Source of the DNA: a phage
Length of the DNA: 64,000 nucleotides
Assembly (NCBI GenBank): GCA_027218345.1
Contig: GCA_027218345.1_3950.1
Reading direction: 5' to 3' (one strand)
The translations under genes were made by a program, and so were the position numbers. The notes below the pieces were generated by a model. It did not search any database, was not told where the DNA came from, and saw only the letters and a list, made by a program, of their open reading frames with translations. Positions 99 to 34,601 of this stretch are shown here, one piece after another. Position 1 is the first letter of the stretch. The number at the start of each line of letters is the position of its first letter.

Positions 99-174
99 TG
101 GAGAATCCGAGGGGACTCGAACCCTTGTAAACCTGTCTTGCAGACAGGTACATATCCATTTCTGTCACGGATTC
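99..174 (-). tRNA. tRNA-Cys (anticodon GCA)
   Basis: Minus-strand cloverleaf by hand: encoded CCA, T-loop TTCGAGT, anticodon loop CTGCAAG, acceptor cggattc/gaatccg, discriminator U. Confidence 0.6.
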
Positions 175-178
175 AAAT

Positions 179-271
179 TGGAGGAAGATACCAGACTTGA
201 ACTGGTACACCGATTTCTCAGCTACTGGCAGTTTAGCAAACTGCTCCCTTACCTTTTAGGGTTAATCTTCC
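179..271 (-). tRNA. tRNA-Ser (anticodon GCU), class II
   Basis: 93 nt, encoded CCA, perfect acceptor ggaagat/atcttcc, T-arm ACCAG-TTCAAGT-CTGGT, anticodon loop TTGCTAA, long variable arm. Confidence 0.6.
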
Positions 272-272
272 A

Positions 273-1007
273 TTATTTCTGTAATGCGTTCTTCATTTCT
301 GGTGTTGCAATAGCATCAATTACACCAGTTTTACAAGCATCATCAAACCAGTCTGGTAAGATACCTGCTAAGAACCCATTGATATTCGTTTTAAGGTACT
401 CTGCAATAAGGGCAGCTTCTTCTTCAATCATCTGCACAACTTCATCTGCATAAGCTGTAATCTTTGAAATACCTTCATTAATCTTACTGACAGCTTGGTT
501 AGCTAAATCAGAAACAGTATCAAGACCCTTGTCAATAGCGTCTTGTAAGTCACTTAACACACCATTAACACTATCTAGTGTACTGTTAATCATGTCAATA
601 GCTTTTTGACCATACTCTGTAGCAACACCCATGATACCACTGAATGGTGTACAACCAACTTGTTCTCCTGCTGCACCCATAACATTGGAGTATCCTTTTG
701 CTACCTGCATACGTGATGAAAACTCATCAATAGACTTTTGACCGTAGTCTGTTAGGGTCTTAGTAGTTGCTGTAGTGCTTGTAAGGCTTGTTGTAAAGCT
801 GTTTAGGAGGACTGTTGTAAGTCCAGCAGCAACAAGTTTCTCCTTCATTGTAGGGTCTGTTACAGAGCTAATAGAGCTTACAAGTGATGTAGAGGCAGCT
901 ACGGTTCCGCCGAGAACTGCTGCACCAGTAATAAGTGGGTTAGAAAACCCTTTACCGGTTTTTAAGAGATTAAAAATCTCCTTACCTTGTCCTGTCATCT
1001 CTTTCAT
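273..1007 (-). CDS. hypothetical Ser/Thr/Ala-rich protein inside the tRNA cluster
   Basis: ORF with ATG (MKEMTGQ) preceded by AAGGTG; upstream part of the listed ORF overlaps a tRNA and is dropped. Confidence 0.45.
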   Translation of the reverse strand: MKEMTGQGKEIFNLLKTGKGFSNPLITGAAVLGGTVAASTSLVSSISSVTDPTMKEKLVAAGLTTVLLNSFTTSLTSTTATTKTLTDYGQKSIDEFSSRMQVAKGYSNVMGAAGEQVGCTPFSGIMGVATEYGQKAIDMINSTLDSVNGVLSDLQDAIDKGLDTVSDLANQAVSKINEGISKITAYADEVVQMIEEEAALIAEYLKTNINGFLAGILPDWFDDACKTGVIDAIATPEMKNALQK

Positions 1008-1025
1008 TAAGCACCTTTGAAATTG

Positions 1026-1100
1026 GTAGTCCAGTGGGATTTGAACCCTCTTCTCATGTTTTTCAGACACGCGCTTTAACCATATAAGCTACTTGGACTA
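1026..1100 (-). tRNA. tRNA, probable Phe (anticodon GAA); CCA not encoded
   Basis: Perfect 7-bp acceptor tagtcca/tggacta, T-loop TTCAAAT, anticodon loop CTGAAAA; D-region irregular. Confidence 0.45.
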
Positions 1101-1105
1101 TAAAT

Positions 1106-1181
1106 TGGGGTGACCTACGGGATTTGAACCCGTATAGACCATGTTCACAGCATGGGTCATTACCATTTATGATAAGGCCAC
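1106..1181 (-). tRNA. tRNA-His (anticodon GUG)
   Basis: Encoded CCA, discriminator C, T-arm ACGGG-TTCAAAT-CCCGT, D-stem tcat/atga, anticodon stem ccatg/catgg with loop CTGTGAA. Confidence 0.65.
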
Positions 1182-1212
1182 ATTTAAGGACTCTCGTAAG
1201 AACCCTTAGAAG

Positions 1213-1288
1213 TGGCAGCGGCATAAGGATTTGAACCTTAATAAGACAGCTTCAGAGACTGCTGCATTGCCAGTTATGCTATACCGCT
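1213..1288 (-). tRNA. tRNA-Gln (anticodon CUG)
   Basis: Encoded CCA, discriminator G, T-arm TAAGG-TTCAAAT-CCTTA, D-stem gcat/atgc, anticodon loop CTCTGAA. Confidence 0.5.
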
Positions 1289-1293
1289 AAATT

Positions 1294-1372
1294 TGGTACT
1301 CCATATCGGATTCGAACCGATACATAACACAGATTTTAAGTCTGGCCTCTCTGCCAATTGGAGTAATGGAGC
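1294..1372 (-). tRNA. tRNA, class-I shape, anticodon probably UAA (Leu-type)
   Basis: Encoded CCA, discriminator A, T-arm ATCGG-TTCGAAT-CCGAT, D-loop AATTGGCAGA, anticodon loop CTTAAAA; short variable region. Confidence 0.4.
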
Positions 1373-1374
1373 AT

Positions 1375-1450
1375 TGGCGGGGGATGTTGGAATTGAACCA
1401 ACTTCTTCGATTTCAAAGACCGAGGTTTTAACCTTGTAAACTAATCCCCT
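1375..1450 (-). tRNA. tRNA-Gln (anticodon UUG)
   Basis: Encoded CCA, discriminator G, T-arm GTTGG-TTCAATT-CCAAC, D-stem gttt/aaac, anticodon stem tcggt/atcga with loop CTTTGAA. Confidence 0.55.
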
Positions 1451-1458
1451 TTAAATCT

Positions 1459-2016
1459 TTACTTTCTCAGTGGATGAATAAAGAATGCCAACATAACTCT
1501 TTCCCTTGAGAATGCTCTTTCTTCTGGGACAACACTTTTTAGTTTCCATCCAATATAAATTCTCCAGTAAAATTGTTTACCAAAGATTTTAATTGATGGG
1601 ATAAAAGCGAATAATCCCCAAGCATTCCTGTTCCACATTAGGAGATAACCAGTCTGATTATCTTCAGGGTTAGAACTTACGTTGATATTACCTTTCCACT
1701 TAGTAACATCTTTTACATCTCTTCCTAACACATGGTAAGAGAAGTTATAAGCTTTGTTTCTCCAGAGCCATCCAACTCTCTGCAAATAGACACCTAGCTT
1801 ACCAATCTTTCTAATCTTAGCCCATCTTTTAACGTGGCCTTCATCACCATCAATTGGGTTATCATATGTCTCCATCCATCTGAATCCAAAAGGGAGATGT
1901 CCTTTCTTCTCACTGTAGAATGGAACTACGAAAGGTGCTAAGATGACTGCTAGGGTTGCTGCAAATGGTTCTAGTAAAGCTAGGAAAATCCATGAAGCAT
2001 ACTTCAAATATCTCAT
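1459..2016 (-). CDS. hypothetical protein with N-terminal hydrophobic segment
   Basis: 185-aa ORF between tRNA genes; N-terminal stretch of about 25 hydrophobic residues. Confidence 0.45.
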   Translation of the reverse strand: MRYLKYASWIFLALLEPFAATLAVILAPFVVPFYSEKKGHLPFGFRWMETYDNPIDGDEGHVKRWAKIRKIGKLGVYLQRVGWLWRNKAYNFSYHVLGRDVKDVTKWKGNINVSSNPEDNQTGYLLMWNRNAWGLFAFIPSIKIFGKQFYWRIYIGWKLKSVVPEERAFSRERVMLAFFIHPLRK

Positions 2017-2035
2017 CTAAATAGCCTCTTAAAAT

Positions 2036-2113
2036 TGGTGTTCCAAGACGGATTCGAACCGTCACTAATACAAGGTTTGAGCTTGCATCCTCTGCCAATT
2101 GGGATACTGGAAC
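2036..2113 (-). tRNA. tRNA, class-I shape, anticodon CAA (Leu-type)
   Basis: Encoded CCA, discriminator A, T-arm GACGG-TTCGAAT-CCGTC, acceptor gttccag/ttggaac, D-loop AATTGGCAGA, anticodon stem gcaag/cttgt with loop CTCAAAC, 6-nt variable region. Confidence 0.45.
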
Positions 2114-2114
2114 A

Positions 2115-2189
2115 TGGTACTCACTAAAGGACTTGAACCTTTTTCTTCATCTTGTAAGGGTGATGTTTTACCATATAAACTAAGCGAGT
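2115..2189 (-). tRNA. tRNA-Val (anticodon UAC)
   Basis: Encoded CCA, T-arm AAAGG-TTCAAGT-CCTTT, D-stem gttt/aaac, anticodon loop CTTACAA. Confidence 0.55.
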
Positions 2190-2284
2190 GTGAAAGAGGT
2201 CTGAAGTTGTGCCGCTAACTCAACTCCGTGGAATTTGTTACGGTCTTCAGTTGACACCAGCGGTCTTTCACTTGACCTCTGAAT

Positions 2285-2361
2285 TGGTGCTGCTCACAGG
2301 ACTCGAACCTGCATTTCCATCCTTACAAGGGATGTGTAATAGCCAATTATACGAAAGCAGC
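2285..2361 (-). tRNA. tRNA-Thr (anticodon UGU)
   Basis: Encoded CCA, T-loop TTCGAGT, anticodon stem catcc/ggatg perfect, loop CTTGTAA. Confidence 0.6.
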
Positions 2362-2367
2362 TTTATT

Positions 2368-2442
2368 TGGAGCATCCAGAGGGAATCGAACCCTCAACCT
2401 CAGTTTGGAAGACTGTAATTTTCCCGTTTAAACTATGGATGC
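2368..2442 (-). tRNA. tRNA-Gly (anticodon UCC)
   Basis: Encoded CCA, discriminator U, perfect acceptor gcatcca/tggatgc, T-arm GAGGG-TTCGATT-CCCTC, anticodon loop CTTCCAA. Confidence 0.6.
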
Positions 2443-2448
2443 ACTAAT

Positions 2449-2524
2449 TGGTGGAGAAGCAGGGAATTGAACCCTGTACTTAAGTTTGCAAAACTTATGT
2501 TTTAACCATGTAAACTACATCCCC
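2449..2524 (-). tRNA. tRNA-Ala (anticodon UGC)
   Basis: Encoded CCA, G3:U70 wobble in acceptor, D-stem gttt/aaac, perfect anticodon stem taagt/actta, loop TTTGCAA. Confidence 0.65.
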
Positions 2525-2530
2525 AATGTC

Positions 2531-2606
2531 TGGTACAGGTGGAGGGAATTGAACCCATCGTCTTACTGATTAAGAGTCAGCCGCATAACCATTTTGCTAC
2601 ACCTGC
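2531..2606 (-). tRNA. tRNA-Lys (anticodon CUU)
   Basis: Encoded CCA, discriminator A, T-loop TTCAATT, anticodon loop CTCTTAA; T-stem has mismatches. Confidence 0.5.
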
Positions 2607-2613
2607 ATTAATT

Positions 2614-2690
2614 TGGTACACCTAGAGAGATTCGAACTCACACTGAGCAGATTCTAAGTCTGCTGCCTCTACCAGTTGGGCTATAGGTGC
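2614..2690 (-). tRNA. tRNA, class-I shape, anticodon UAG (Leu-type)
   Basis: Encoded CCA, discriminator A, D-loop AACTGGTAGA, perfect anticodon stem gcaga/tctgc, loop CTTAGAA, 5-nt variable region. Confidence 0.5.
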
Positions 2691-2948
2691 ATTAAATCTT
2701 TTTAGAGAACTTCTAAGAACCTAAGCAACAAGGTTCCACAACAAGCTGTAATAACCTTAGAAGCCCTCTAAAAAGACCTAAAAAGGTCTTTACATAGTCT
2801 TGTTTAATCCGGTGACTAGAACCTTTGGAGAGCTTGATATTATCTCTTCTCCGTGACACCTACTAGGTGCTTTATCAGTGTGTACGACAATACACGAGGG
2901 ATACCAAAGCAACATCCGAATGAAGCTTGGCTTTAAAATCTTATTAGG

Positions 2949-3036
2949 CGGTAAGTAAAGGAGTCGAACCCTCACCGTATCTCTACAGTGGCAACTGTTT
3001 TCAAGACAGTTTGGCTACCATTAGCCGCTACCTACC
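2949..3036 (-). tRNA. tRNA-Ser (anticodon UGA), class II; CCA not encoded
   Basis: 88 nt, discriminator G, anticodon stem actgt/acagt with loop CTTGAAA, long variable arm, T-loop TTCGACT. Confidence 0.55.
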
Positions 3037-3049
3037 CCTAATAAGACTT

Positions 3050-3132
3050 TGGCATGGGACGGAGGAGTTGAACCCCTTTGAAACGGTGTTGGAAGCCGTT
3101 GCTCATGTCTTAGAGTCTTAACATCGTCCCAC
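3050..3132 (-). tRNA. tRNA, non-canonical 83 nt, anticodon possibly CCA (Trp)
   Basis: Encoded CCA, discriminator G, acceptor gtgggac/gtcccat, T-loop TTCAACT; D region enlarged, fold uncertain. Confidence 0.4.
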
Positions 3133-3275
3133 ACTATAATTCGAAGCTTACCGTATTATCTCAACACTGTAAAGCCCCTTCTCAGATTATTTACATGTTC
3201 TGGAAAACATGAGATACAGACCACCTCCCTACAGGAAGACCCGCTTAGGTCGTCTAAGTAATCTGCTAACTAAAT

Positions 3276-3357
3276 TGGTCGAGGCGGCAGGACTCGAACC
3301 CGCATACTCCACTTACTCGGTTAACGGCTGTTTAGAAGACAGCTGAGATACGCCCCG
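3276..3357 (-). tRNA. tRNA-Arg-like (anticodon UCU), non-canonical architecture
   Basis: Encoded CCA, acceptor cggggcg/cgcctcg, T-arm GCGGG-TTCGAGT-CCTGC, stem-loop gctgt-CTTCTAA-acagc; no normal D-arm found and about 23 nt before the T-arm. Confidence 0.4.
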
Positions 3358-3561
3358 TAATTATCTTTAAAGACTCTCTTAGAAAGCCCTTAAAGATGCC
3401 CACCTTATTAATCATACCGTGGGCGAGTACGCCAAATTCTTTGATGAGGGGTTGGAAGACCTCACTGGTGTTTAGCCTATCAAGCTACTGCCAGAAAAAC
3501 ATTGTCGTTTGCATTTATTTTAAATTTGCAAAATAGACGCTACGCAACGAAAACTAAGGTT

Positions 3562-3590
3562 ACTATAAAGTAGTCACATCTCAGTGTCAA
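3562..3590 (-). promoter_or_regulatory. sigma70-like promoter candidate inside the tRNA cluster
   Basis: On minus strand TTGACA, 17 nt, TATAGT. Confidence 0.35.
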
Positions 3591-3605
3591 CAACTTTATT
3601 GAAAT

Positions 3606-3683
3606 TGGTACTGTGAGAAGGATTCGAACCTTCTGCCTTTCGGTTATCAGCCGAATGCACATCCATATGTGCTAACCCACAAT
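3606..3683 (-). tRNA. tRNA-Ile (anticodon GAU)
   Basis: Encoded CCA, perfect T-arm GAAGG-TTCGAAT-CCTTC, D-arm gcac-ATATGGAT-gtgc, anticodon stem ttcgg/ccgaa with loop CTGATAA; acceptor pairs only with a 4-nt connector. Confidence 0.5.
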
Positions 3684-3760
3684 TGGAGGTTCAGATGGGA
3701 TTCAAACCCACATTCATAGGGCTTATGAGACCCTTGCATTACCTTATCTGCGACTGAACC
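3684..3760 (-). tRNA. tRNA-Met or Ile2 (anticodon CAU)
   Basis: Encoded CCA, perfect acceptor ggttcag/ctgaacc, T-loop TTTGAAT, anticodon stem agggt/gccct with loop CTCATAA. Confidence 0.55.
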
Positions 3761-3764
3761 ATTT

Positions 3765-3840
3765 TGGTAGAAGTGGAGGGATTCGAACCCATCGCCTTTC
3801 AGATTAAAAGTCTGCCGCATCACCATTCTGCTACACTTCC
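3765..3840 (-). tRNA. tRNA-Lys (anticodon UUU)
   Basis: Encoded CCA, discriminator A, T-loop TTCGAAT, anticodon loop CTTTTAA. Confidence 0.55.
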
Positions 3841-3846
3841 ATTAAA

Positions 3847-3986
3847 TTATCTTTGTAGATAAGCTACCCAGACTTGCTTAAGGTCTGTAGCGATGTGCCT
3901 TTTTGGGTTTAAATCTAGAATTTACCCTTTCACCCTTTGTGGTCGCATACTCACAGGTAAGCTTAATAACTTATCTACAAAGATAA
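3847..3986. repeat. pair of identical 16-bp palindromic hairpins in inverted orientation flanking 108 bp
   Basis: TTATCTTTGTAGATAA at 3847-3862 and its reverse complement at 3971-3986. Confidence 0.6.
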
Positions 3987-4268
3987 TTACCAGACCGTTG
4001 TTTATCATCTTAAGTGCTACCATTACACCAACTCGACATCTGCCGAGTGAAGGAATCGAACCTTCGCCTTTTCTTTACCGAGAAATAGATTGTTTAAGTT
4101 TTGCTGTAAACGGTCTTCTGTAAATTTGTTGAGCCAGACCAAGTTTTAAATTTTTCAAAATTAAATTGGCTTGAAATTTTAAGTAACTTGCTGTATTTGG
4201 TCTTCTGCTCCTTTAAAGGATGCTCGTAAGAACCCTTTAAGGGAGGGGCTAAATAGCCCTCTCAAAAT

Positions 4269-4343
4269 TGGCGAGGTGTGCGAGAATCGAACTCGCGGCT
4301 CAGGAGAGACAATCCAGTATTTTACCCGTCTAAACTAACACCC
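4269..4343 (-). tRNA. tRNA, probable Asp (anticodon GUC)
   Basis: Encoded CCA, discriminator G, perfect T-arm GCGAG-TTCGATT-CTCGC, D-stem gttt/aaat, anticodon loop TTGTCTC with one stem mismatch. Confidence 0.45.
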
Positions 4344-4350
4344 CAAAACC

Positions 4351-4779
4351 CTATGTACCATTTCTTAAGTACTTTTCTTTGCGTCTTGCTGAATTATAGT
4401 ATTTACGCCCTTCAGCATTTTTAGAAAGCCTACAAGCCTCACACCTGCATCCTCTTCTATAACCAGAAACTGTACCATGTTTAATTGGTGTGTACTTCCT
4501 TTCACCAATCTGTTTTGGTCTTGTTGCTTTCGAGTTACAGTGTATGTGGCTATATGAGATGTTATCTAGTGAAAAGAAAAGCTCTTTTGCATTTTCACTA
4601 TGTCTCCACGGAGTCTTATGCTCAATAGAGAAATCATCCCTAGTCATTTCTTTCCCGCACTGAAAACATCTATTTTGATTTGTTTTACATATAAAATCAA
4701 ATAGTAAATCTTTTACTAGCCTGTTTTGTGCAGTTCCTAAACTCATACCAAGCTGTGATTTGTATACTTCATCTCTCAT
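4351..4779 (-). CDS. HNH homing endonuclease
   Basis: HNH/zinc motifs CFQCGKE...IEHKTPW...SHIHCN and C-terminal CxC cluster; embedded in tRNA cluster; internal ATG start preferred over TTG. Confidence 0.65.
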   Translation of the reverse strand: MRDEVYKSQLGMSLGTAQNRLVKDLLFDFICKTNQNRCFQCGKEMTRDDFSIEHKTPWRHSENAKELFFSLDNISYSHIHCNSKATRPKQIGERKYTPIKHGTVSGYRRGCRCEACRLSKNAEGRKYYNSARRKEKYLRNGT

Positions 4780-4802
4780 GACTAAGTATCTCAATAAGTG
4801 TT

Positions 4803-4890
4803 TGGTGTGCCGTGTAGGAGTCGAACCTACCGAGTCTCAATGACAAGGGATTTACAGTCCCCACCGCTACCATCTACGGGATAACGACAC
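4803..4890 (-). tRNA. tRNA-Tyr (anticodon GUA), class II
   Basis: 88 nt, encoded CCA, perfect T-arm GTAGG-TTCGACT-CCTAC, anticodon stem-loop gggga-CTGTAAA-tccct, long variable arm. Confidence 0.6.
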
Positions 4891-4899
4891 ATTTAAATT

Positions 4900-4976
4900 T
4901 GGCGGTTAGTCAGGGATTCGAACCCTGTGCCATTCGCTTAACAGGCGACCGCACATACCTTATGTGCTTCCTAACC
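4900..4976 (-). tRNA. tRNA-Asn (anticodon GUU)
   Basis: Encoded CCA, discriminator G, perfect T-arm CAGGG-TTCGAAT-CCCTG, D-stem gcac/gtgc, anticodon loop CTGTTAA. Confidence 0.55.
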
Positions 4977-5053
4977 TTAATACATTGCCAGACCGTGTTT
5001 TTTCTTTTATCCGCAAAAAGTATTTTGTTGCTGAATACGGTCTTCTGCAAAAT

Positions 5054-5130
5054 TGGAGGCGGGTGCAGGAGTCGAACCTGCCGATACCATGCTAATGAGA
5101 CATGTGAGACGCCCTTTCTCTATACCCGCA
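5054..5130 (-). tRNA. tRNA-Met or Ile2 (anticodon CAU), second copy
   Basis: Encoded CCA, perfect T-arm GCAGG-TTCGACT-CCTGC, anticodon stem catgt/gcatg with loop CTCATTA; T1:C72 mismatch. Confidence 0.5.
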
Positions 5131-5221
5131 ATTCTTAATGACCAGACCAAATCTCTTCTTTGTCCGATTTACCTTCAGATGAATAAGATTAAGTTTGCTG
5201 TAATTGGTCTTCTGTCAAAAC

Positions 5222-5299
5222 TGGCGTTCCAGAAGGGATTTGAACCCTCAAATATCCACTTTGAAAGAGTGGTGACTTTACCATTTTGTCTACTGGAAC
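5222..5299 (-). tRNA. tRNA-Glu (anticodon UUC)
   Basis: Encoded CCA, discriminator G, perfect acceptor gttccag/ctggaac, T-loop TTCAAAT, perfect anticodon stem ccact/agtgg, loop CTTTCAA. Confidence 0.55.
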
Positions 5300-5306
5300 A
5301 TTAATT

Positions 5307-5382
5307 TGGTCTCTGTTGGAGGACTTGAACCTCCGGCCTTACCGCCCCAAACGGAACGCTCTACCAAGCTGAGCTAAACAGA
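5307..5382 (-). tRNA. tRNA-Pro (anticodon UGG)
   Basis: Encoded CCA, perfect acceptor ctctgtt/aacagag, D-arm gctc-AGCTTGGTA-gagc, T-arm GGAGG-TTCAAGT-CCTCC, anticodon loop TTTGGGG. Confidence 0.6.
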
Positions 5383-5548
5383 GATAAACTTTTCAAACTC
5401 TATGTAACCACTTTAACATTATTTTTTAGTGGTTGTCAAGAACTTTTTAAAATATTTTTCAGTATCTTAGAAAAGCTCTCATTTCGTTTCTATGTAGAAC
5501 ATATTAAAGGGTATCAAACACATTGTCAATACCCTTTTTTAAAACTTT

Positions 5549-22452: not shown

Positions 22453-23238
22453 TTAGTTCTTTGCGTCTAAGAAGGTAACTTCTGGTGAAGAGAAAACTGT
22501 CTCGATATCCTCATCAGTTCTTGCATAGATATAAGTATCTGCATCACTGCCAAATGTTACTGCAATCCTGTGATTGCTCTTCGACAGGTGGGTAACTAGA
22601 GCGTTACTCAGAGACATCTTTTCAACCGGAGGGTTACTTTGATGTATCTTACCTTTTCTTCGTCTGAAGAGGGTAACTGCGTTATCTGTGAACACTGCTA
22701 CACCTGCAAAGTATTCTGGTTCACAGTAGTTCTTCCAACCTGAGAGTAACTTGTGGTACATCTCTCCTTCATAGACATATAGATAAACATCTACACTCTT
22801 CATCACCTGATTGATGATAACTGTGACGGCTTGAGGGTCAAGTCCATCGATACCTGCACCAATCATAGGTAAACCAACTTTCTTCAACTGATTGACTTCA
22901 CAGTATCTGTTAAGCTGCTTCAAAGATGACTCTAAAGCACTGTATCGGGCATCTTTACCAGTATGAAGTTGGGTGTAAAGGTTAGCTATACGACCTTGTT
23001 TTAAACGTGCTACAGAGAAATTACCTAGTAAATTTTCACAGGGTTTGTGGCGAATGCCACCTGCAAACAGGTAAACTTCTGTGTCAGTATCATACACTTT
23101 TGGATAACGCTTAGAAATAGTTGCTGCAATACCTGCACCCATGAAATTCATACAGTTGCAACCATGACCAATGATGTCAAACTTACCTTTATCAAATGCG
23201 TCAAATATATCGCCATTGATGATTTTTACAATACCCAT
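22453..23238 (-). CDS. macro-domain protein (putative ADP-ribose processing enzyme) with C-terminal extension
   Basis: N-terminal GDIFDA...DIIGHGCNCMNFMGAGIAATI and LPMIGAGIDG resemble macro-domain ADP-ribose binding loops. Confidence 0.55.
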   Translation of the reverse strand: MGIVKIINGDIFDAFDKGKFDIIGHGCNCMNFMGAGIAATISKRYPKVYDTDTEVYLFAGGIRHKPCENLLGNFSVARLKQGRIANLYTQLHTGKDARYSALESSLKQLNRYCEVNQLKKVGLPMIGAGIDGLDPQAVTVIINQVMKSVDVYLYVYEGEMYHKLLSGWKNYCEPEYFAGVAVFTDNAVTLFRRRKGKIHQSNPPVEKMSLSNALVTHLSKSNHRIAVTFGSDADTYIYARTDEDIETVFSSPEVTFLDAKN

Positions 23239-30683: not shown

Positions 30684-30710
30684 TTAAAAAGGCTCCCGTA
30701 GGAGCCTCTT
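30684..30710 (-). terminator. rho-independent terminator after nadV
   Basis: Minus-strand hairpin GAGGCTCCTACGGGAGCC then TTTTT. Confidence 0.55.
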
Positions 30711-30721
30711 ATCATATACTT

Positions 30722-32505
30722 TTAAAGCTGCTTGTCAATATTATTTCGAATATCGCCAAGAGTTGTGTAACCGAACTGCTCAGAGTCACTAAAGACTAAA
30801 CGTAAAGCACAAGCTGGATGTTCAAGCACATCTGCAAAGCTCTGGAATCCATAGCCATCTACAGCTTTCAGCTTATCACCATCCCACATGGGCGCTACAC
30901 CACCAAAAGCAGACTTCTTAACACCGCTATCTGTTTTAGGGTCTTTTGCAAGCATAATCTCTTTACCACCAATGCTTGCAAGAGTTGCTTTGACAGCAAA
31001 TGCAAAGGTGTCACGAGTCATGTACTGGTAAGTATAAGAACCTACACCAAACACTACGTTAGAGCTTGCAAAACCCATTTCATACAGACGCTTCAGGATT
31101 TCGTTTGCACGTTCCAACGTGATAGAGTCACCATAGATAAGGCCGATATGTTCATCCAGTACCTTAAAACCTTTAGAGTTGATAGTTCCTCCAAAGATGT
31201 TATACAAGGTCTTAATAGCTCCATCAATCTCTGCTACAGGACGTGTTACAACGTTTGCAGAACCAACCATATAAGCATTCTTCAACATCACTGTATCAGC
31301 AACTTCAAAGTCTTCTCTGTCAACAACCATTTCGTAGCCTTCTGACAGTAGCCATCCAGCAATGCCATAGTTGATGTTTTCAAGCTTCATGTTCAGAACA
31401 GCATTCAACATTGTGTCACTAGCTTCCAGCTTGCTTAGGTGCTCGTAATAAGCCTTCTTAGCACACTCTAAGTGGATTGCTTTATAGCCTGTGACAATAT
31501 GTACAGGGTCTCCAGAGTCAGGGCGAATTACCAGTTTGCCGTCACGTTCCATAATCTCTTTACGAAGTGCTGGTAATATAACTGATACAGTTCTCCAGAA
31601 GTTATAAGTATCTGAAACAACACTTGCAATACCAGTTGGGTAAGTTTCTGTTAAGAAACGACGGAAGGTTTGTAACTCACCTTTAAAGCGTCTTTCTTCT
31701 TCAATCAACTCATTACCACCTTCCCAAGCAATGTTTGCACACATTACAGAGTGTTCAGTGGCTGGTACAGAACTGCCAATATCAGAAATTGGGTAAGACT
31801 GTCCATAGATGCGTTTAGCTGTATATACAGCAGGGAAGCTATCAGTTCCTTTAAAGCTGGTTAAGTGACCTACAGCATTAAATGCGTCATCGGTAAAGCC
31901 GGACATACCACGCATAGCAAAGTCATGGCACTGATAAGGTAAATGTAAGTCATTGTCACAAGTAAGGTCAGCCCACTTCTTACAGATGCGTTTATAATGC
32001 AATGCAATAGTCGCAATGGTACAAGCCTTCCAAATCTCAGCAGAGAAAGCATCTTCCAGATAACCTGCTACCCAATGGAAACCTGAAACAGTGTTCTGGA
32101 AGACAATCATTGGGACACGCATAGGGACAACTGTGCCTTCTTCTACAGCGTATACTTCAACTGGTAGATAACCTAAGTCGTGAAGTGCTTCCCAATGCTC
32201 TCGACCGATAGCATCTTTACCCAGAACACCATTCATGACTTCTAAGATTTCGTCAATTGCTTCTTTTTTATCACGTTCAAAGAAAGTGGCGTTCCAGTGG
32301 TCTATCAAGTAATCTTTAACAAAACGTTGAATACCAAAAGCCACTACACCATCAATTGCTAAGGGGCTGTTAAACCATTTATCACTACGTGGTGTCAGGT
32401 TGAACATCAAATATTCTGTTGCACTAGGATATTGATTGATATGGCCTGATTTGTAGCAATCTGCGTTAAGTCCTGCTGGAACTGCATAAAGTGATTTAGT
32501 CATCT
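30722..32505 (-). CDS. nadV: nicotinamide phosphoribosyltransferase (NAMPT)
   Basis: Large ORF with NAMPT-like regions; start set at MTKS after a hairpin; terminator hairpin downstream. Confidence 0.75.
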
Positions 32506-32550
32506 TGTAATCTCTCTCAAAAGTGGGGCTTACAAGCCCCATGTAATAAT

Positions 32551-33450
32551 TTAATCAAGGTTTGCTACAGTTACTTGACCATAGTGTGACAAACCACGGT
32601 CTTTCGCTTCACCTAAAGTATTTGTAGTGTAGATATGGTCGATTCCGTTGTCAAGCAAGTTTTCAACACCTTTAGAGAAAATCCCATGTGTTACATATAG
32701 TTCCACACGTTTTGCACCTGCTTCACGAAGATGTTTGGCTGCTTCTATGAAGGTTCTACCACCATCACAGATATCATCCAGAATCATGACGGTTTTATCT
32801 GTCAAATCAACATCATCAAGGATTCGCATACCAGTAATTTCACCAGTCTTAAGGTTACGCACTTTAGACATTGTGATGTATGGTTTATCCACCTCTTTAG
32901 CGGTCTCTGCAACCTTCTTAGCAGCACCTGCATCTGGGGCTACTAAGTAATCAATCAGTGGGTCATTTGCATAGTGGACTGCAATTTCCTTTTGAGGAAT
33001 ACTCTGGAAGCAATTGAAAAGGTTATCTGGAACGTAACTGTGAGGGTCAACTGCACAGACTGCACCAAATCCCATTGCATTCACCTGTTTAGCAAAAACC
33101 TTTAAAGCTGCTGCATCACCTTTAAACATGTGACGGTCATATCGTGCATTTGGTAAGTAGTAAAAAATGACAGTCTTCAGGGCATAATCATGAGGAACTA
33201 AATCATCAATTGATTCTTTAGCAAGTGCCACAGCAAACAATGTGTCTTTGTCATAACCCTTTACAATCATAACCACATTGTTAATAGATGATGCTGCATA
33301 AGCAGTAAAATCAACAAGCTCTTGTGAAAAATGTCCACCAATCTCACCAGAAGGGAATTGGATGATGTTAAACTCTTCTTCATGAGTTCCTTTAGTCGGT
33401 GAATGAACTGTAACACGGATAGATGTTTTCATAGTTTCTCTCTTAGTCAA
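32551..33450 (-). CDS. prs: ribose-phosphate pyrophosphokinase-like (PRPP synthetase family)
   Basis: PRPP-binding loop VMILDDICDGGRTF and LVAPDAGAAKK typical of PRPP synthetase fold. Confidence 0.7.
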   Translation of the reverse strand: MTKRETMKTSIRVTVHSPTKGTHEEEFNIIQFPSGEIGGHFSQELVDFTAYAASSINNVVMIVKGYDKDTLFAVALAKESIDDLVPHDYALKTVIFYYLPNARYDRHMFKGDAAALKVFAKQVNAMGFGAVCAVDPHSYVPDNLFNCFQSIPQKEIAVHYANDPLIDYLVAPDAGAAKKVAETAKEVDKPYITMSKVRNLKTGEITGMRILDDVDLTDKTVMILDDICDGGRTFIEAAKHLREAGAKRVELYVTHGIFSKGVENLLDNGIDHIYTTNTLGEAKDRGLSHYGQVTVANLD

Positions 33451-33721
33451 AAGTTACGTTTGTTACTGCCATTGCAGATTTGCATTTTGCAGGGTCTACA
33501 ACGTGATAAAGTACACTACAGTTACCTGTGCTGTCTGGGACAGGCTTTACCCATTGATGCTTTATAGTTGGCTCTCCTAAGTCTTTGTAAGAACCATCTG
33601 TAAAGTTGTTTACCATCTCAAGTGCAATTGGTTCTGGAACATGACCGCGTATCATGTACATCTCACAACCATTACCACCTTCACTGACTAATGGTAAAAT
33701 CTCCCACTTTTCTTTAGCCAT
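33443..33721 (-). CDS. hypothetical protein
   Basis: 92-aa ORF. Confidence 0.4.
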   Translation of the reverse strand: MAKEKWEILPLVSEGGNGCEMYMIRGHVPEPIALEMVNNFTDGSYKDLGEPTIKHQWVKPVPDSTGNCSVLYHVVDPAKCKSAMAVTNVTFD

Positions 33722-34229
33722 TGTAAGTTGCTCTATAAACTGTCTCGAACTTCAACAGGAGAGATATTGCCAAATCTGTATAGTTGTTGTCAAGCACATC
33801 TGGCATATTATTTTTGATATATTTCTCTTGCTCTTCATAGGTCATCTTAGGGATACTTAGGAGGCTATCTCCTTGCTTCTGGTTATCAGCTTTAGTTTGG
33901 ATAAACCAGTTCGCACAGTGATGTTCACCACCTTTTGTAACAGGTTTGTGGTGGCCTAGTGTAAATGTTTGCTTACCCGTATACCTGCAAAGATTGTTCA
34001 GTGTTGCAATGGTGTTCTTCACAACACACCATTCATACAGGTTATCTATTGTGTAGTGTGGGTAATAACGGACAAGTGCTCTTTCACGGAAGTTATCATG
34101 ATTCCAAAGAACCATGTGATTAGAATTTGAAGGGTCATATTTGTGGGAGTCTATAAACTCTTGACGCTCATCAAAGCTGAGTCTTAGAACTGACATTGCA
34201 ACCGAACGTTTCAGGTTTGACAGGTACAT
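33714..34229 (-). CDS. HNH endonuclease
   Basis: Motif LGHHKPVTKGGEHHCANWFIQTKADNQKQGD (His-Asn-His core). Confidence 0.6.
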   Translation of the reverse strand: MYLSNLKRSVAMSVLRLSFDERQEFIDSHKYDPSNSNHMVLWNHDNFRERALVRYYPHYTIDNLYEWCVVKNTIATLNNLCRYTGKQTFTLGHHKPVTKGGEHHCANWFIQTKADNQKQGDSLLSIPKMTYEEQEKYIKNNMPDVLDNNYTDLAISLLLKFETVYRATYNG

Positions 34230-34280
34230 TTTACCTCCAAAATAAAAAGGGAACCTTTACAGTCCCCTTATAGTATCTGT

Positions 34281-34601
34281 TTACTGAGCTACTTTCAAGA
34301 TGCTTGTGAATGAAATCTCACTCTCATCCATAAACTCTTTTGCTTCTCCAGTAACTTTCACAAAGTTATCTAGGCAGATAATCTTCTTATCTTTCTTGCT
34401 GTAGGTTAGCTTAACCTTTTCAATATCTTTCTTAGAACTTTTCTCTTCATTGAAGAGTTTTACAGCCTCTTTAAACGGTAGGTATGAACCATCGTCGTCG
34501 CTAATAAAACCTGTGCCACAATAGTAGAAGTTGTATTCTTTAGCCATAAACTGGCACAGTACGAAAATCTGTAATTTGCGAGTGTTATAAACTTTGCTCA
34601 T
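34281..34601 (-). CDS. hypothetical protein
   Basis: 106-aa ORF. Confidence 0.45.
   Translation of the reverse strand: MSKVYNTRKLQIFVLCQFMAKEYNFYYCGTGFISDDDGSYLPFKEAVKLFNEEKSSKKDIEKVKLTYSKKDKKIICLDNFVKVTGEAKEFMDESEISFTSILKVAQ

Follow-up and report, generated by a model that had tools for sequence, protein, structure and literature searches.

A Felixounavirus gene pair annotated for NAD salvage is very probably the NAD+ reconstitution pathway NARP1

NAD+ reconstitution pathway 1 (NARP1) was discovered on an operon of phage Bas63, genes 79-80 (Osterman et al., bioRxiv 10.1101/2024.02.11.579819). Bas63 lacking these genes is sensitive to SIR2-HerA, ADPR-PP is seen only with the wild-type phage, and the rescue is independent of pncC and nadR; in the same study, 97% of the Adps-clade genes adjoin a Namat gene (bioRxiv 10.1101/2024.02.11.579819). 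The two activities, ADPR + ATP to ADPR-PP and ADPR-PP + nicotinamide to NAD+, were demonstrated in vitro for enzymes of SPbetaL1, ICP1 and DyoEdafos. Criteria for telling Namat from Nampt come from the study of SPbetaL1 Namat (PMC12774641), and the acceptor and catalytic residues of Adps were defined by structures and kinetics of the ICP1 enzyme (PMC13586617).

The window analyzed here, a stretch of 64,000 nucleotides, is from the genome of a Felixounavirus (Felix O1-like E. coli/Salmonella phage). The DNA of the region is 95% identical to JLBYU32, REP8, HY02 and wV8, and 242 records cover at least 80% of it. Two adjacent long ORFs, at exactly 30722-32542 and 32551-33450 (longest-ORF coordinates), both lie on the minus strand. 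A preliminary description had read them as a NAMPT gene followed by a Prs-family gene; the adjacency is correct, but given their strand, transcription reaches the Prs-like gene before the NAMPT-like one. The true starts are most likely the ATG at 33432 (adps) and the ATG at 32503 (namat), both in agreement with the annotation of Bas63 and relatives; the upstream ATG at 32542 sits within a hairpin and is missing in relatives. The features of the locus, in order of transcription, are:

34247..34298, minus strand: terminator-like hairpin (34269-34247) and weak promoter-like site (34298-34270, 9/12), consensus matches only
33714..34229, minus strand: ORF of 171 aa, PHROG 3500, weak HNH-like match, orthologue of bas63_0077
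33443..33721, minus strand: ORF of 92 aa, PHROG 4726, no assigned function, orthologue of bas63_0078
32551..33432 including the stop, minus strand: adps, first NARP1 gene, predicted ADP-ribose pyrophosphokinase (Prs/PRPS-like), 293 aa; based on bas63_0079 identity, Adps HMM and ICP1 Adps residues
32524..32541, minus strand: intergenic stem-loop U-GGGGCU / UGUA / AGCCCC-A, 7 bp, then CUUUUG; fold -14.6 kcal/mol, z = -2.86
30722..32503, minus strand: namat, second NARP1 gene, predicted nicotinamide ADP-ribose transferase (Nampt-like), 593 aa; based on bas63_0080 identity, SPbetaL1 Namat (9w5w/9w5x) match and clamp motifs
30711..30738, minus strand: sigma-70-like promoter match TTGACA-16-TATGAT (11/12), abutting the terminator hairpin, consensus match only
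30687..30710, minus strand: intrinsic terminator 11 nt past the namat stop, a hairpin (10-bp stem, -16.7 kcal/mol) plus a following T-run

The window Adps is identical to bas63_0079 at 230 of 293 residues (78%), and the window Namat to bas63_0080 at 583 of 593 (98%). Gene order and neighbors also match between the two phages, with nrdG upstream and rIIA downstream. Because orthology to the Bas63 operon, Adps- and Namat-type signatures in sequence and fold, and the operon layout all point the same way, the pair is very probably NARP1 of Felixounavirus, composed of Adps and Namat. The two-gene NAD module with a likely anti-defense role that had been proposed is borne out; the observation is real, but it is explained by an already published pathway. 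Orthology, signatures and layout come from the present analysis; the chemistry is taken from published work on the SPbetaL1, ICP1 and DyoEdafos homologues, and the anti-defense phenotype from the Bas63 deletion of genes 79-80. The reading of this phage's own pair, which we hold with high confidence, is carried over from such homologues of other phages.

The Prs-like protein matched Pribosyltran/Pribosyl_synth, TIGR01251 (123.6 bits) and PHROG 619 (2.9e-96) far beyond chance. Its NCBIfam score pattern resembled that of ICP1 and SPbetaL1 Adps, which reached 98 and 106 bits with TIGR01251, compared to 423 bits for E. coli Prs. None of the NCBIfam Prs equivalog cut-offs was passed (best score 105 bits against a cut-off of 296); with PRK01259 the protein scored 91 bits against a cut-off of 297, while E. 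coli Prs scored 533. The preliminary description had called for a comparison of Prs and ADPR-PP-synthetase profiles. An Adps HMM built from seven Adps of other phage groups, without Felixounavirus sequences, gave 226.9 bits for the window protein and 127-138 for true Prs, while a Prs HMM gave 59.1 bits for the window protein and 650-680 for true Prs. ICP1 residues F18, R87, H121, D161, K185, D212, D213 and F221 as well as the DDICDGG PP loop are all kept (F26, R97, H131, D167, K190, D219, D220, I221-C222-D223-G224-G225 and F228 in the window); the sole residue difference concerns the adenine contact F92 of ICP1, which aligns with M102, adjoined by F103. The C-terminal alpha11-alpha12 module of Prs (filament/regulation) is absent, as in all seven comparison Adps, and the window protein ends with ...RGLSHYGQVTVANLD. 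Judged by these features, the protein is an Adps (ADP-ribose pyrophosphokinase) and not a PRPP synthetase. The preliminary description had named ADPR-PP synthesis, correctly, as one alternative, but held that PRPP and ADPR-PP could not be told apart from the sequence; because Bas63 orthology, reciprocal HMM scores and published specificity signatures agree, the product can be read from the sequence as ADPR-PP.

The NAMPT-like protein likewise matched its families far beyond chance (NAPRTase and NAMPT_N; NF006629, 3.2e-139; PHROG 448, 1.8e-202). It scored 434 bits with SPbetaL1 Namat versus about 140 with human NAMPT, and its best PDB match by both sequence and fold was SPbetaL1 Namat (9w5w/9w5x); the AF2 model (pLDDT 93) superposed on 9w5x with a TM-score of 0.95. 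The Nampt-like catalytic core is kept: D15, Y17, F195, R198, D221, H251, R327, D329, G458-D459 and T496-R497-D498 are invariant in the alignment, with SPbetaL1 D13, Y15, F189, R192, D215, the catalytic His, R306, D308, G360-D361 and the T-R-D triad as reference. The adenine-clamp (SCH) motif is present as GSYTYQYMTRD, whereas true Nampt reads GAQTYQRNTRD (HdNadV) or GGALLQKVDRD (Xcc) at this position and misses the clamp. In the selectivity-clamp loop (SCL) the third residue is Arg, Lys or Tyr and, if Lys or Tyr, stacking is provided by the fourth residue, with Bas63 as a named Lys-type example (PMC12774641); in the window it reads PR-S-D-K42-W43, identical to Bas63. By these signatures the "NAMPT" protein is a Namat, and the labels "NAMPT" and "NAD salvage" given to the module earlier are misleading database names for the Namat and Adps of NARP1. 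The Namats assayed in vitro, those of SPbetaL1 and ICP1, are 46-47% identical to it. As Namat enzymes retain some PRPP-dependent NMN synthesis in vitro (PMC12774641), a minor salvage activity may persist here by analogy.

By the published chemistry, a NAD-depleting defense (SIR2-HerA/Nezha, DSR2, type I Thoeris, Kongming or similar) would convert NAD+ to ADP-ribose and nicotinamide. Adps (33432-32551) would then move the beta-gamma pyrophosphate from ATP onto the 1'' hydroxyl of ADP-ribose, yielding ADPR-PP, and Namat (32503-30722) would join ADPR-PP with nicotinamide directly to NAD+, without an NMN step and without host NadR or PncC. By analogy with Bas63, the pair is likely a counter-defense against NAD-depleting immunity.

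The family names themselves suggest classical salvage: ribose-5-phosphate would be turned into PRPP by the Prs-like enzyme, PRPP and nicotinamide into NMN by the NAMPT-like one, with NadR or PncC of the host completing NAD+. Pfam, NCBIfam and PHROG names agree on it, NF006629 is above its cut-off, GenBank annotations of relatives carry salvage names, and SPbetaL1 Namat with PRPP in vitro was about half as active as human Nampt (PMC12774641). However, Bas63 overcomes SIR2-HerA even in a host without pncC and nadR (bioRxiv 10.1101/2024.02.11.579819), the Prs-like protein reaches none of the Prs equivalog cut-offs and clusters with Adps, the ADPR-PP selectivity clamp missing from true Nampt is there in the Namat, and the host has its own Prs already. 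We therefore regard salvage as very unlikely. A canonical ribose-phosphate diphosphokinase (Prs) was rejected as the identity of the first gene on the failed equivalog cut-offs and the missing C-terminal helices.

Some phages, such as KVP40, use Nampt together with Nmnat (bioRxiv 10.1101/2024.02.11.579819), and a NARP2-like arrangement would combine a true Nampt with a phage NMN adenylyltransferase encoded elsewhere, the Prs-like enzyme raising PRPP supply. We give this hardly any credence: the ORFs flanking the pair showed no Nmnat or Nudix family, no Nmnat or Nudix partner is annotated in Bas63 between 40000 and 86000, the NAMPT-like protein bears the Namat and not the Nampt signature, and Adps beside Namat, the layout of nearly all Adps-clade genes, is also the layout of the window. 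The Nampt/NadV of NARP2 was rejected as a candidate on the clamp motif and the partner not found in the flanking ORFs. Among variants of NARP1 itself, the RyR-domain (PF02026) glycosidase of NARP1 with RyDEP was not found by Pfam in the flanking ORFs, and the Macro domain of NARP1-AP was in none of the six ORFs flanking the operon.

The preliminary description had the pair insulated by a hairpin upstream and a terminator downstream. The terminator is present (30710-30687); the hairpin, however, lies between the genes (32541-32524) and does not insulate the pair, and directly upstream, where 33425-33500 was folded, no significant hairpin was detected (z = -1.24). Further upstream, the first hairpin resembling a terminator is 34269-34247, about 815 nt from the pair, with two small abutting or overlapping ORFs between; 34247..34298 probably marks the upstream limit of the transcription unit. 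The 171-aa ORF, probably its first gene, has an 8-nt overlap with the 92-aa ORF, and the stop codon of the 92-aa ORF, which is probably co-transcribed with adps, is 10 nt upstream of the adps ATG. Adps directly precedes namat on the same strand with a 47-nt spacer; judging by this arrangement, both are probably co-transcribed with the two small ORFs, in a unit that would run from about 34270 to the terminator at 30687. The promoter-like site 30711..30738, which abuts the terminator hairpin, probably drives the next unit.

The intergenic stem-loop, followed by the namat ribosome-binding site GAGAGAG (32518-32512), is retained in 22 of the 28 related loci and also in Bas63. Its loop varies and its stem is almost invariant, a pair of loci (L022/L023) being the sole variant; in the remaining 6 of 28 a HNH_3/AP2 homing-endonuclease gene takes the place of the hairpin. 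It looks like a weak terminator, attenuator or RNA-stability element and might adjust the balance of Adps to Namat.

Over residues 1-180 the window Adps shares only 67% identity with Bas63 Adps, and over the C-terminal domain 96%; over the N-terminal region dS is 1.28 and dN/dS 0.18, with nearly identical flanks. By this divergence the N-terminal 180 residues are a separate, old allele relative to Bas63. A host factor directed against Adps could be the selective force behind such an old, recombining allele. In Namat, lineage-specific insertions occupy roughly residues 256-284 and 338-428. The longer of them, with about 90 aa, is modeled confidently as a small alpha/beta domain, for which no relatives were detectable by sequence or fold. 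Being placed in a barrel loop that leads from strand to helix, it would lie on the catalytic face, and it might serve in regulation or partner binding.

A Macro-domain protein of 261 aa (22453-23238), about 7.5 kb from the NARP1 operon, might act as an ADPR-1''-phosphate phosphatase and extend the pathway against aRES-type defense as in NARP1-AP. It is above the Pfam Macro cut-off, belongs to PHROG 335 ("phosphatase") and aligns end to end with Adpp of NARP1 operons (Gary, 28%, E 8e-15; JG004, 30%, E 1e-20), and in Pseudomonas phage SPA01 a homologue sits just downstream of NARP1. Its distance from the operon nevertheless speaks against such a role, as do closer homologues (33-39%) in T-even phages, which imply that the family is not necessarily linked to NARP1, weak similarity to Poa1p (17.7 bits) and some 105 additional C-terminal residues with no assigned role. 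We consider this extension doubtful; if true, it would widen the pathway to defenses that produce ADPR-1''-phosphate. That Felixounavirus NARP1 exceeds the published two-gene pathway, through Namat insertion, Macro protein or Adps N-terminal allele, seems decidedly improbable. No description of these three features was found in the cited NARP1 literature; they are modest leads, not discoveries.

The main value of the result is the correct annotation of Felix O1-like phage genes. Hundreds of Felix O1-like records name them "ribose-phosphate pyrophosphokinase" and "nicotinamide/nicotinate phosphoribosyltransferase", which masks a counter-defense against NAD depletion in phages that are candidates for therapy or typing. 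Adps/Namat and Prs/Nampt are separable by sequence alone; the features that serve for this are the hairpin and PP-loop motifs of Adps, its lack of the Prs C-terminus, and the clamp GS[YF]T[YM][QN]xxTRD of Namat.

Compared to known systems, the window Adps shares superfamily and chemistry (pyrophosphoryl transfer from ATP) with bacterial Prs, but is only 23% identical to E. coli prs and does not have the C-terminal regulatory helices. True Nampt/NadV (HdNadV, Xcc, human NAMPT) shares superfamily and chemistry with the window Namat, pyrophosphate being displaced by nicotinamide, but is without the adenine clamp. With the Adps of ICP1 and SPbetaL1, the window Adps has in common the PRPS-like fold family, the catalytic Lys hairpin K-x-R-[DN]-x-x-T-G-[ED], the DDICDGG PP loop, the F/R/H/D acceptor residues and the missing C-terminal helices, although identity is only 31-32% and the N-terminus is about 10 residues longer. 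SPbetaL1 Namat (9w5w, 9w5x; PMC12774641) resembles the window Namat in its catalytic core (TM-score 0.95), but is 47% identical, has R40 in the SCL where the window has K42-W43, and is without the two insertions. The closest system is NARP1 of Bas63 (Escherichia phage JohannRWettstein). There, namat is followed by an additional gene of 114 aa (0081) that is missing from the window, but the two phages share genus, gene order, neighbors, the intergenic hairpin and the Namat insertions.

Within 30722-33450, two long ORFs were found, both on the minus strand and adjacent to each other, and their family matches were unambiguous: Pribosyltran/Pribosyl_synth, TIGR01251 and PHROG 619 for the Prs-like ORF, and NAPRTase with NAMPT_N, NF006629 and PHROG 448 for the NAMPT-like ORF. 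The two-gene module of the preliminary description is therefore real. As both ORFs lie on the minus strand, the Prs-like gene is transcribed before the NAMPT-like gene, the reverse of the order first worded.

33450-32551, minus strand, longest Prs-like ORF (299 aa, TTG start)
32542-30722, minus strand, longest NAMPT-like ORF (606 aa)

The start codons originally assigned are also probably wrong: the true starts are likely ATG 33432 for the Prs-like gene (adps, ADP-ribose pyrophosphokinase; 293 aa) and ATG 32503 for the NAMPT-like gene (namat, nicotinamide ADP-ribose transferase; 593 aa). Both match the starts annotated in phage Bas63 and other relatives, and a GAGAGA(G) ribosome-binding site lies 5' of each. 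An alternative namat start, ATG 32542, lies within a hairpin and is absent in relatives.

NAD+ reconstitution pathway 1 (NARP1) was first found in Bas63 (JohannRWettstein), a Felixounavirus, where genes 79-80 encode it. Bas63 without these genes is sensitive to SIR2-HerA, ADPR-PP is seen solely when the wild-type phage infects defence-carrying cells, and host pncC and nadR are dispensable for rescue (bioRxiv 10.1101/2024.02.11.579819). Purified SPbetaL1 homologues convert ADPR and ATP to ADPR-PP, and ADPR-PP and nicotinamide to NAD+ (bioRxiv 10.1101/2024.02.11.579819). Compared with the Bas63 reference sequence (MZ501086), amino-acid identity was 78% for Adps (230/293, bas63_0079) and 98% for Namat (583/593, bas63_0080), and the gene context was the same. 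The neighbours are those of Felixounaviruses, with rIIA directly downstream and nrdG/nrdD upstream; a minus-strand array of 24 tRNA genes (99-5383) is likewise typical of the group. The 3.2-kb module region showed 95% DNA identity to many Felixounavirus genomes (JLBYU32, REP8-12, HY02, wV8), and 242 phage records covered at least 80% of it. Judged by sequence, the module can be assigned to NARP1, close to the founding Bas63 example; it is already known, that example having been described in the NARP1 literature.

While the biology first proposed was essentially right, the view that PRPP and ADPR-PP synthesis could not be told apart from sequence was wrong, as three independent tests (NCBIfam scores, reciprocal HMMs and structure-based criteria) identify the Prs-like enzyme as a predicted Adps. 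On the broad TIGR01251 model it reached 123.6 bits, and the biochemically characterised Adps scored alike (ICP1, 98 bits; SPbetaL1, 106 bits); it fell under every NCBIfam Prs equivalog cut-off (e.g., 105 vs 296), and E. coli Prs scored 423 and 533 bits on NCBIfam models. An Adps HMM was built from seven unrelated-phage proteins (ICP1, SPbetaL1, SPA01, Wamburgrxpress, AP1, Skywalker and GAP31); a Namat-like gene shares the operon in at least six cases, the AP1 partner being unconfirmed. This HMM gave the window protein 226.9 bits vs 127-138 bits for gamma-proteobacterial Prs, and a Prs HMM gave it 59.1 bits, known Adps 42-95 and true Prs 650-680. Using the criteria that the structural study of ICP1 Adps provides (PMC13586617), we found the acceptor residues F26, R97, H131 and D167 kept, the catalytic Lys190 within a K-V-R-N-L-K-T-G-E hairpin, and D219, D220, the PP loop DDICDGGRT and F228 present; the C-terminal alpha11-alpha12 module of Prs was missing in the alignment comparison. 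The sole departure was M102, which aligns with ICP1 F92 and is adjoined by F103.

The NAMPT-like protein scored highest against SPbetaL1 Namat (9w5w/9w5x, 434 bits), followed by HdNadV (354), Xcc Nampt (176) and human NAMPT (~140), and its AF2 model (pLDDT 93.1) had 9w5x as best fold match (TM 0.95). The catalytic core is kept (D15, Y17, F195, R198, D221, H251, R327, D329, G458-D459, T496-R497-D498). By the selectivity-clamp criteria of PMC12774641, the clamp loop carries K42-W43 as in Bas63, and the Namat motif was retained in 35/35 homologues sampled, including chromosomal ones from Klebsiella and Cronobacter; the window protein reads GSYTYQYMTRD where true Nampt have GAQTYQRNTRD (HdNadV) or GGALLQKVDRD (Xcc). 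The clamp motif GS[YF]TYQYNTRD also occurs in proteins of ~496 aa that are encoded on Klebsiella, Cronobacter and Erwinia chromosomes and labelled nicotinate phosphoribosyltransferase (P0069, P0073, P0076, P0088 and similar), in line with reports that NARP1 exists in bacteria.

Of the hairpins thought to insulate the pair, the downstream terminator was confirmed, whereas the fold test gave no significant hairpin immediately 5' of adps; the near-gene hairpin sits between adps and namat.

30710-30687, minus strand, strong terminator 3' of namat
32541-32524, minus strand, adps-namat intergenic hairpin (-14.6 kcal/mol, z = -2.86)
34269-34247, minus strand, nearest upstream terminator-like hairpin
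30738-30687, 34298-34247, ~39024 and ~24783, minus strand, promoter-terminator composites (consensus match)
~10400, 12466 and 14632, plus strand, promoter-terminator composites (consensus match)

Between the upstream hairpin and adps lie ORFs of 171 aa and 92 aa that overlap by 8 nt, the latter ending 10 nt before the adps ATG; this spacing suggests that the 171-aa ORF, the 92-aa ORF, adps and namat likely form a four-gene transcription unit. Directly 5' of both boundary hairpins are sigma-70-like matches (11/12 and 9/12, by consensus only). The composite recurs in the window as a -35/-10 consensus match, a 0-5 nt gap and a GC-rich terminator stem; transcripts begun there would lack the 5' hairpin arm and so could read through. 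The intergenic hairpin is followed by just four U residues and then the namat ribosome-binding site, and may act as a weak terminator, attenuator or stability element. It occurs in Bas63 and 22/28 IMG/VR relatives, with an almost invariant stem and a variable loop. In the other six (L010, L014, L020, L021, L030, L031), a homing-endonuclease gene of the HNH_3/AP2 type (163 aa; 4391-4882, corresponding to window 32504-32550) takes the hairpin's place, precisely at the adps-namat junction.

Pfam analysis of the flanking ORFs revealed no Macro or RyR gene within the operon, which makes it a plain two-gene NARP1; by published logic, such a module should fail against aRES, an ADPR-1''-phosphate producer. 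A Macro-domain protein is encoded ~7.5 kb downstream, unlinked from the operon.

22453-23238, minus strand, 261-aa Macro-domain protein (PHROG 335)

This orthologue of bas63_0095 ("putative phosphatase") aligns across the whole Macro domain to NARP1-operon Adpp ADPR-1''-phosphate phosphatases at about 28-36% identity (Gary, 28%, E 8e-15; JG004, 30%, E 1e-20), with an extra C-terminal region of ~105 aa. Its T-even phage homologues are closer, so that a link to NARP1 is only a lead; Table S1 of the aRES study, on NARP1-associated Macro proteins, holds no Escherichia/Salmonella phages and no Felixounaviruses.

Compared with Bas63, the first ~180 residues of Adps represent a distinct allele (67% identity), and DNA identity drops to 65-77% over 33480-32980 between flanks of 93-99%. 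This mosaic block (32980-33432, minus strand), the Adps N-terminal domain, circulates as two old alleles among otherwise near-identical Felixounaviruses; dS of 1.28 and dN/dS of 0.18 point to an allele that is old and functional and has been transferred by recombination. Among GenBank records, the window type is commoner (155 with ≥90% identity vs 94 with 60-80%). Bas63 also has an extra 114-aa gene without a Pfam family, bas63_0081 (L004 15509-15853), between namat and the next gene, which the window lacks (~30675). The Namat of SPbetaL1 and ICP1 are ~100 residues shorter than the Ounavirinae type because the latter has two insertions, at sites that vary in length among homologues (14-97 aa at the larger); the word "insertion" is absent from the Namat structure paper (PMC12774641), so this feature goes undiscussed there, and the larger one (residues ~338-428) is predicted to fold confidently both in the whole-protein model and alone.
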